DNA of 1,511 nucleotides from Escherichia phage ECO95 1-6-1. The position numbers and the translations under genes were made by a program. A model generated the notes under the pieces. The model ran no database searches. It saw nothing but the letters and a program-made list of their open reading frames with translations, and was not told the DNA's origin. The stretch lies in the sequence record OR845888.1; one strand, written 5' to 3'. This document shows positions 328 to 736 of the stretch, in pieces; positions within the stretch are counted from its first letter, which is position 1; every line of letters starts with the position of its first letter.

Positions 328-531
328 TTACTCTCCCTCTTCCTCTTCAAATAAGACGTTAGCGTCAGCCGCTAGAGTCCATGTATACCAGCCCTCATGC
401 TCAATATCCAGCTCAGTACCATTATCATCAAGGATGTAGGTACGGCTCTCATCTCCATCCTTCTTAACATGGTATAGGTCGCCAACAGTTAAGGCCCAGA
501 ATTCAGTAGTCTCGTAGCATTCTAAGAACAT
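328..531 (-). CDS. Small acidic hypothetical protein, 67 aa (paralog B); C-terminal part of the track ORF 328..708
   Basis: Internal ATG at 531..529 preceded by GGAG with a 7-nt spacer (minus-strand TTGGAGATTAATTATG), lying 14 nt after the TGA stop of the upstream gene (545..547). Product MFLECYETTEFWALTVGDLYHVKKDGDESRTYILDDNGTELDIEHEGWYTWTLAADANVLFEEEEGE: 19 D/E against 3 K/R, acidic tail EEEEGE. Shares the motif IE-x-x-G-[WY]-YTWT-[LF] with the adjacent gene. The 5' extension to 708 overlaps the neighbouring gene by about 160 nt in another frame and translates to S/T/P/L-rich sequence, so it is judged non-coding. Confidence 0.65.
   Translation of the reverse strand: MFLECYETTEFWALTVGDLYHVKKDGDESRTYILDDNGTELDIEHEGWYTWTLAADANVLFEEEEGE
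377..389. repeat. 13-nt exact direct repeat gtccatgtatacc, copy 1 (copy 2 at 621-633)
   Basis: Identical 13-mers at 377-389 and 621-633 encode WYTWT and GYTWT in the two acidic paralogs. Confidence 0.6.
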
Positions 532-544
532 AATTAATCTCCAA

Positions 545-736
545 TCACTCAACCAAGAAAGATACGTGCTTACCATTAATGTCGGAGCAACCGTAATAAC
601 CGTCACCTTCATCACGGAAGGTCCATGTATACCCTGAATCTGCCTCGATGTAGCACAGGTCAGCTGAGAGGGTAAATTCATACTCATTAAACAGGGTGAA
701 GTGTTCATTAGATTTAACGCAAGTTGCAGTAATCAT
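545..736 (-). CDS. Small acidic hypothetical protein, 63 aa (paralog A)
   Basis: Track ORF. ATG at 736..734 overlaps the TAA stop of the upstream lipoprotein gene by 1 nt (TAATG), with GGAG 8 nt upstream. Product MITATCVKSNEHFTLFNEYEFTLSADLCYIEADSGYTWTFRDEGDGYYGCSDINGKHVSFLVE: 11 D/E against 3 K/R. Contains GYTWT encoded by the same 13-nt string as WYTWT in paralog B. Confidence 0.7.
   Translation of the reverse strand: MITATCVKSNEHFTLFNEYEFTLSADLCYIEADSGYTWTFRDEGDGYYGCSDINGKHVSFLVE
621..633. repeat. 13-nt exact direct repeat gtccatgtatacc, copy 2 (copy 1 at 377-389)
   Basis: Second copy of the 13-mer at 377-389, here encoding GYTWT in paralog A; read directly from the sequence. Confidence 0.6.

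Follow-up and report, generated by a model that had tools for sequence, protein, structure and literature searches.

Two small acidic early proteins of a coliphage, apparently encoded by independent and horizontally exchanged accessory genes

Two short, adjacent genes of a coliphage, here termed P1 (67 aa) and P2 (63 aa), are best explained as two independent, horizontally exchanged early accessory genes, with products that would bind host proteins and that would serve thereby in either host takeover or counter-defence. To that reading as a whole we assign a probability of about one half. A preliminary description of the same DNA had presented the two genes as tandem paralogs that share a motif and that have been subject to diversifying selection, and had proposed their products as candidate DNA mimics or anti-defence proteins. 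As considered below, the genes themselves stand as described, their supposed kinship does not, and mimicry is retained, if at all, as a possibility for P1.

The window, by which is meant the whole 1,511-bp stretch of DNA that was analysed, is 99.9% identical to OR844702 and like wastewater phage assemblies, which are ~43 kb in length. Among annotated phages the closest to it is Escherichia phage vB_EcoP_P64441 (Autographivirales, Autoscriptoviridae, Slopekvirinae), for which every gene listed in the region compared lies on a single coding strand. Every plausible gene of the window is found on the minus strand, in the 5' to 3' order of a 50/54-aa ORF, a promoter stretch, a 33-aa ORF, a 79/81-aa gene, P2, P1, and then a Rha-type gene. 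The features that are relevant here are as follows:

1291..1319, minus strand: sigma70-like early promoter (predicted), TTGACT-17-TATAGT, with 10/12 matches, found in a non-coding stretch upstream of the P2/P1 operon
983..1084, minus strand: 33-aa hydrophobic ORF, the operon's first ORF 3' of the promoter
736..981, minus strand: 79/81-aa gene, of which the N-terminus resembles a signal peptide and the motif CNWGKWA is conserved (phrog_19819)
745..748, minus strand: P2 Shine-Dalgarno sequence, GGAG, 8 nt ahead of the start codon (ATG, 736..734)
545..736, minus strand: P2 gene, 63 aa, as recognised from its ORF, phrog_3249, homologs, dN/dS (0.10-0.31), and an AF2 model
620..631, minus strand: P2 YTWT codons (aa 36-39), within the Asp-box-like hairpin A-D-S-G-Y-T-W
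539..542, minus strand: P1 Shine-Dalgarno sequence, GGAG, 7 nt ahead of the start codon (ATG, 531..529)
328..531, minus strand: P1 gene, 67 aa, as recognised from its ORF, homologs, dN/dS (0.04-0.13), and an AF2 model
376..387, minus strand: P1 YTWT codons (aa 49-52), with WYTW[TS] conserved only in the podophage P1 lineage
1..325, minus strand: N-terminal part of a Rha-type HTH regulator, downstream of P1 (Pfam Phage_pRha, E 4.6e-12; phrog_63)

In the 99.9% identical genome, a lysozyme gene, which is a late gene, and a beta-helix tailspike gene lie directly upstream of the P2/P1 operon block. Because the block is positioned just 3' of those two genes, it is taken to be the start of the early region. 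From this place after late genes, and from the sigma70-like promoter, the P2/P1 operon is predicted to be early. A 36-bp block of the promoter region is present in two copies in the reference phage, and an Rfam scan of the window gave no match. Within the operon the TAA stop of the 79/81-aa gene shares 1 nt with the P2 ATG (TAATG). The regulator beside the two genes is a Rha-type HTH protein which is 251 aa at full length in the reference genome and which at that length also matches Phage_pRha.

That P1 and P2 are real genes is shown by their GGAG sites, by their conserved homologs, and by dN/dS values, as calculated against homologs from other contigs, of 0.04-0.13 for P1 and 0.10-0.31 for P2. 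It had been allowed, as a circumstance which would undo the two-gene description, that only a longer, 126-aa frame (328..708) might be translated. We reject that frame as a gene. P1 homologs, that is, all begin at an internal M[FL]LEC, and the GGAG at 539..542, found ahead of the ATG at 531..529, favours that internal start over the 126-aa frame. The longer frame, in addition, would overlap that of P2, which is both conserved (PHROG 3249, E 1.4e-23) and under purifying selection. The compositions first reported for the two proteins also prove to be exact. P2 possesses 11 D/E versus 3 K/R, along with 11 aromatic residues (pI 4.30, net charge -8), and P1 possesses 19 D/E versus 3 K/R, along with 10 aromatic residues (pI 4.05, net charge -16). 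It is P1 which has the C-terminal tail EEEEGE.

Less durable is the claim that these two genes arose through local duplication followed by diversifying selection. There are, to be sure, reasons why this might be suspected, as P1 and P2 are adjacent, similar in size, and both acidic and predicted to be all-beta. Furthermore, both hold the sequence YTWT with IE four residues upstream (IE-x4-YTWT), and an identical 13-nt string, GTCCATGTATACC, is found at 377-389 and at 621-633. The shared block, though present in both proteins just as the preliminary description had it, is nevertheless what might be expected by chance. An exact shared 4-mer is seen in 7.6% of shuffled P1/P2 pairs and the best Smith-Waterman score between the two proteins is attained in 4.6% of shuffles, i.e., p of 0.05-0.08. 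Nor is the block conserved in either family, its counterparts being DTGQMWTF, DNGDVWVL, and DDGFAWKL among P2 relatives and GYGRWAL among Kagunavirus relatives of P1. The 13-nt identity amounts to the same four residues being encoded in both genes, with agreement in two synonymous choices. Such an outcome is expected about 1 in 8 times given the peptide, and the string was set aside as either a regulatory site or a gene-conversion patch.

Comparison of whole proteins and of families points in the same direction. BLASTP of P1 against P2 gave no alignment at E<=100. Comparison of the two families using hhalign did yield forward P values of 0.001-0.002, with strands co-linear (best 0.0011, over 42 co-linear columns), but reversed-sequence controls perform equally or better, i.e., P 0.0022 for the P2 family versus reversed P1 and P 0.0004 for the P1 family versus reversed P2. 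The co-linear alignment, moreover, places the YTWT of P2 opposite TELD of P1 rather than opposite the latter's own YTWT, and the YTWT of P1 lies in a different strand from the one in the hairpin of P2. Given a P2-family HMM, real P1 sequences rank below many shuffled decoys, and a HMMER scan of 1.84 billion representatives with the P2 profile yielded 30 matches among which there were no P1-family members. As the reversed controls are equal or better, as shuffles outrank P1, and as the YTWT motifs go unpaired, the resemblance between P1 and P2 is attributed to composition and to beta-hairpin periodicity. The two families also belong to different phage groups. Diversifying selection, for its part, is contradicted by dN/dS values which, at 0.04-0.31, are far below 1 and which therefore indicate purifying selection. 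Descent of P1 and P2 from a tandem duplication thus is very improbable. The two, rather, appear to be unrelated and evolutionarily independent genes, and the YTWT block is judged to be chance-level and no family signature.

How P2 could come to possess YTW is better understood in terms of its own family. The match of P2 to phrog_3249 (E 1.4e-23) extends over residues 1-63 of 63 and profile positions 1-65 of 65, and on this basis P2 is assigned to PHROG 3249. Window P2 and other members of this family are of equal length, are likewise acidic and all-beta, and have in common an invariant core, which is C6-V-K, F13-T-L, E18-Y-E, D33-x-G-x-x-W38, and G46-Y-Y-G. Included in that core is part of an Asp-box-like beta-hairpin, A-D-S-G-Y-T-W (consensus S-x-D-x-G-x-T-W), of which D33, G35, and W38 alone are invariant family-wide. 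YTW, that is, occurs in P2 at a place where a widespread hairpin motif is variable. GYxW and GxTW variants arise naturally inside of the family, with the window's P2 displaying the full Asp-box-like GYTW and its closest PHROG 3249 relatives instead displaying GQMW. The AF2 model of P2 is an all-beta meander (pLDDT 69) with five confident strands and the N-terminus unmodelled.

The 30 matches to the P2 profile consist of small phage proteins (60-80 aa) along with long BNR/Asp-box proteins, of Sortilin-Vps10 type, and WG-repeat proteins, the E-values of the long repeat proteins being sums of many weak Asp-box/WG hairpins. The P2 hairpin Y-I-E-A-D-S-G-Y-T-W-T can be aligned to the YIYISSDFGVTWT units that recur in proteins of BNR/Sortilin-Vps10 type, and the P2 segment GYYGC-x-D-x-x-GK-x-V aligns with the WG beta-repeat (PF14903). 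BNR proteins are a propeller of repeats, however, whereas P2 is a single hairpin in 63 aa, and neither the BNR nor the WG models of Pfam match P2 at E<=1, at which threshold P2 has no Pfam match at all. A PDB profile search with P2 gave motif-level matches only (ThreeFoil, Mitsuba, sortilin, and GluR2), and these were rejected as homologs, having been judged to be matches to a G-x-x-W/Asp-box hairpin. The likeness of P2 to BNR and WG proteins is viewed as a probable sharing of a structural motif, as distinct from shown homology.

PHROG 3249 is widely dispersed. Using tblastn, P2 gave positive results with at least 93 phage records, representing four unrelated morphotype groups. In Rogunavirus and Rtpvirus (rtp57, Rogue1 gp53, and JK06 JK_67) the family is found among the small genes which follow helicase and VRR-NUC genes in the replication module. 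It is present in BASEL phages of the Braunvirinae (Bas01_0046), and in the lambdoid phages mEp515 and mEp021 it follows a minor tail gene and has its own terminator, which is a moron-type position. In rV5-like myophages (rV5 gp111), it is located between nrdD and nrdG. The P2 of the window differs from these in setting, that is, in residing in a podophage early operon, the others being found in the replication module of siphophages, at a moron site of the tail module, or in the nrdD-nrdG gap.

Some of these relatives, including rV5 gp111 and that of phiJLA23, have been labelled as ‘putative minor capsid protein’, and P1 displays a weak match (E 1e-3) to phrog_14592, a ‘virion structural protein’. 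Taken at face value this would make P1 and P2 minor constituents of virions, which we consider to be highly unlikely. The note in the rV5 record itself cites only likeness to the hypothetical protein rtp57, and neither the rV5 proteomics text nor its available supplements (PMC3606486) name gp111 as a virion protein. The settings of these genes, in addition, are early, replication, or nucleotide-metabolism ones, with all contexts outside of head modules, and both genes are absent from a closely related phage. The ‘minor capsid protein’ label of P2 homologs thus is without traceable evidence.

The P1 family by contrast is rare. It was detected in only 17 phage records, and 5 of these represent the very phage from which the window comes. 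Among 5.8 billion clusters that were searched, roughly a dozen members were recovered. Beyond the podophage lineage its carriers are Kagunavirus, in small-gene arrays, and Christensenvirus (Drexlerviridae), in which a relative of 43% identity is located between tail genes, i.e., at a tail-module moron site. Invariant in the family are the acidic positions E4, D25, D27, D35, D36, E40, D56, E62, and E63. The AF2 model of P1 is an all-beta meander of 7 strands (pLDDT 66). The one Pfam match of P1 at E<=1 is to CBM26 (E 0.088).

That P1 and P2 are exchanged among phages is suggested by comparison of the window with metagenomic contigs of related podophages and with vB_EcoP_P64441. The related contigs have in common the 81-aa gene and, downstream, a class of regulator, with the genes in between differing. 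The 79/81-aa gene thus is the conserved head of a variable gene array, with homologs in the contigs L012, L013, L015, L016, and L018. Gene orders, with otherwise unnamed genes given as their lengths in aa, are as follows:

Window, L012, and L013/L014: 81, P2, P1, with a 13-nt P2-P1 spacer throughout
L015: 81, 62, 66, P2, then another acidic protein of 63 aa (phrog_14327) in the P1 slot
L016/L017: 81, 62, 66, P2, KilA-N
L018: 83, 69, P2, ANT
vB_EcoP_P64441: the 81-aa homolog abuts a DNA-binding protein, with P1 and P2 both absent

For the same pairs of contigs, dS is 0.8-3.0 for P1 and P2 versus 0.65-0.97 for the flanking 81-aa gene, and this excess fits with cassette exchange. The gene pools from which the two would have been drawn apparently differ as well, that of P1 being Kagunavirus and that of P2 being T1-like phages. 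P1 and P2 are accessory, horizontally mobile genes which occupy a variable early slot.

The P2-then-P1 order, together with the identical 13-nt spacer, is nonetheless retained in three podophage contigs which are diverged, i.e., with 63-81% and 70-75% aa identity to the window's proteins. Fixed spacing in three phages could reflect a joint action of both proteins. It could be argued from this that the two proteins work as a unit of two components, as of an inhibitor with its partner or chaperone, or instead as a heterodimer, with each requiring the other in order to function. Such mutual requirement is doubtful, however, as each gene is found without the other. Thus P1 is lacking from L015-L018, as it is from every siphophage, lambdoid, and rV5-like carrier of P2, and relatives of P1 are present without P2 in Kagunavirus and Christensenvirus.

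The acidity of P1 and P2 bears on the suggestion that they are DNA mimics, that is, anti-restriction or anti-CRISPR proteins similar to Ocr, ArdA, or Acr proteins, with acidic surfaces that copy the DNA backbone and thereby sequester host nucleases. Acidity stands out for P1 only. Within the locus it is P1 that is the outlier in charge (-16 over 67 aa), whereas the P2 charge of -8 is ordinary among small ORFs of the locus, and the neighbouring early proteins of 54 and 81 aa also are of pI 4.1-4.2. P1 resembles Ocr and ArdA in being small and very acidic, with comparable charge density, and its acidic tail and many invariant acidic positions are as would be expected of a mimic. The early operon, too, is consistent with this, since T7 Ocr (gp0.3) is made first and from an early operon that is transcribed by host RNA polymerase, and so is the accessory, patchy distribution of both genes. 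In other respects P1 and P2 depart from these proteins. The Ocr fold is a helical dimer and the fold predicted for P1 and P2 is all-beta, although DNA mimics have no single common fold. ArdA-type genes are common on plasmids, but a plasmid search yielded no homologs of P1 or P2. Ocr and ArdA were not matched in Pfam at E<=1, and profile searches of the PDB at E<=10 returned neither these two nor any other DNA mimic or Acr. In Pfam, NCBIfam, and PADLOC scans there were no relevant matches to either protein, and across these and the PDB no homolog was found to which a function, partner, or phenotype had been assigned; literature searching by accession and by locus names similarly came up empty. 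Searching BFVD with the P1 model, using Foldseek, gave no match at E<0.5, though negatives of fold searches are weak here as the AF2 models are of moderate quality (pLDDT 66-69), having been built from alignments of only 7 (P1) and 12 (P2) sequences. What still favours mimicry is the extreme charge of P1, the argument otherwise being one of composition and timing. We view mimicry by the two proteins as rather unlikely overall, with a DNA-mimic role possible for P1.

A different route to a function for P2 would be by way of Gp54(Bas11). This is a 66-aa and non-essential protein (PMC11578894) by which the defence protein CapRel SJ46 is triggered directly (PDB 9AXB; phrog_7421). P2 might be distantly related to the family of Gp54(Bas11), which consists of small beta-barrel proteins of T1-like phages, and would then likewise be a small and dispensable protein to which a host immune sensor (CapRel SJ46) can bind directly. 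A family alignment of Gp54 was built for comparison with the P1 and P2 families. With the P2 HMM, the Gp54 homolog of Sashavirus scores 13.9 bits, which is above all of 6,500 shuffled decoys (maximum 9.9), and hhalign of P2 versus the Gp54 family gives P of 0.003-0.005 compared with 0.36-0.38 for reversed controls. The equivalent comparison of P1 was not significant (P 0.08-0.13). P2 and Gp54 furthermore are similar in size, are all-beta, and are drawn from one common pool of accessory genes of coliphages. Only that one member of the Gp54 family scores, however, and Gp54 of Bas11 itself does not. The HHalign probability is a mere 7-11%, phrog_7421 does not match P2 at E<=1, the two differ in PHROG, and no sequences bridging the P2 and Gp54 families were found. 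The solved structure of Gp54(Bas11), as well, is a six-stranded barrel, in comparison with a predicted meander of 7 strands, and its pI of 5.2 means that it is not strongly acidic. Common ancestry of P2 and Gp54 therefore seems unlikely, and is best described as a weak and unproven possibility that depends on one member.

These ideas can be extended into a more ambitious one, in which P1 is a new, all-beta nucleic-acid mimic that blocks a DNA- or RNA-binding enzyme of the host, of either defence or housekeeping, and in which P2 and Gp54(Bas11) belong to a broad superfamily of small beta proteins of coliphages that are read by host immune sensors. In that case an inhibitor and an immune-visible molecule would be combined in one cassette. 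We regard this combination as speculative, and the odds as being well against it.

The explanation of P1 and P2 as independent early accessory genes is more readily reconciled with what is seen, and may be stated as follows. Both would be genes of an early operon, transcribed by host RNA polymerase, of an E. coli podophage which is Slopekvirinae-like and ~43 kb in length. P2 would have been acquired from a T1-like/lambdoid/rV5-like pool, that is, PHROG 3249, whereas a pool of Kagunavirus type would have been the source of P1, with both joined as a cassette between the conserved 81-aa secreted-type protein and a regulator of Rha, ANT, or KilA-N type. Each protein, as a compact, acidic, and all-beta product of the first minutes of infection, may then bind a host protein stoichiometrically, and that binding may either divert the physiology of the host or disable one of its defences. 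For P1, which is so strongly negative and has an acidic tail, the target most plausibly would be a nucleic-acid-binding protein.

In its context the locus fits an accessory role, whether of host takeover or of counter-defence, and a useful comparison is with the class I early genes of T7-like and phiKMV-like podophages, which are involved in host takeover. Those genes also are short ORFs which open the early region and follow promoters recognised by host sigma70, and likewise are dispensable and variable among relatives, though no function-assigned member is homologous to P1 or P2. P1 and P2 are a new instance of something familiar, small and uncharacterised accessory genes that a coliphage expresses early, and the locus is a typical variable slot that gathers small genes from co-infecting phages.

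For the present the value of these findings is mostly corrective, in that what had looked like paralogs bearing a signature motif is seen to be an artefact of composition along with beta-hairpin periodicity. Should either protein turn out to be a counter-defence or takeover factor, then a small all-beta scaffold would be added to those of phage inhibitors. If that factor were P2, then a function would be provided for PHROG 3249, a family that is present in at least 93 coliphage records.

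The sigma70-like early promoter upstream of P2 and P1, that is, of the adjacent genes for acidic proteins of 63 and 67 aa, respectively, is carried by a 36-bp block that is present as a single copy in the window (1293..1328). Reference genomes that are 99.9% identical to the window possess instead two copies of this block (L001 3966..4318, L001 being one such genome), which flank a cassette of 281 bp that contains a basic 77-aa ORF (MIEQIKSTKPNVNGN...) and an SD of its own. With one block here versus two around the cassette there, either the window is a promoter-to-promoter deletion variant or the references carry an inserted promoter-plus-gene cassette.

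Between this promoter and P2 are found the following:

1085..1290, minus strand: apparently non-coding leader of about 200 nt, separating the promoter from the first small ORF
983..1084, minus strand: 33-aa strongly hydrophobic ORF (MRNAMYMLVILPLLLLQWAAPFLVIYALIKLFS), the first past the promoter
736..981, minus strand: 79/81-aa protein (phrog_19819), in which CNWGKWA is an invariant motif and the N-terminus resembles a signal peptide

An Rfam scan of the leader returns no match, as is the case also for family searches (Pfam, PHROG) with the 33-aa ORF, a candidate small membrane protein. The 79/81-aa gene is kept at the head of the variable gene array in all related podophage contigs. The last base of its TAA stop is also the first base of the P2 ATG (TAATG), an arrangement which suggests that the two genes are translationally coupled.

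Certain P2-family members, i.e., rV5 gp111 (L009 3004..3240, from the rV5 record) along with those of the phiJLA23, A6-1, and isim records, are labelled ‘putative minor capsid protein’. The sole basis stated in the rV5 record is similarity of gp111 to the hypothetical rtp57, and gp111 is absent from the proteins given in the rV5 proteomics paper (PMC3606486). This label appears to have been propagated without evidence. OR847174 and OR848645, deposited as ‘Listeria phage LM 4-11-1’ and ‘LM 4-14-1’, are 4-5 kb contigs with 99.9% identity to this coliphage sequence, and probably are UNVERIFIED assemblies of the same wastewater study that carry a wrong label or are cross-contaminated.

The position following P2, which here is occupied by P1, is filled in a related metagenomic podophage contig (L015 1628..1819) by an unrelated acidic 63-aa protein, phrog_14327 (14 D/E versus 4 K/R). 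This slot seems to have a preference for small acidic proteins of differing origin. DNA mimicry or anti-defence activity was the function guessed at in the preliminary description. The pentapeptide-repeat fold class has established DNA mimics, Qnr and MfpA for example, among its members, and the early region of the related Slopekvirinae phage vB_EcoP_P64441 encodes a pentapeptide-repeat protein (L002 2624..3211). For this phage group it is, a priori, a stronger candidate for a DNA mimic than either P1 or P2.
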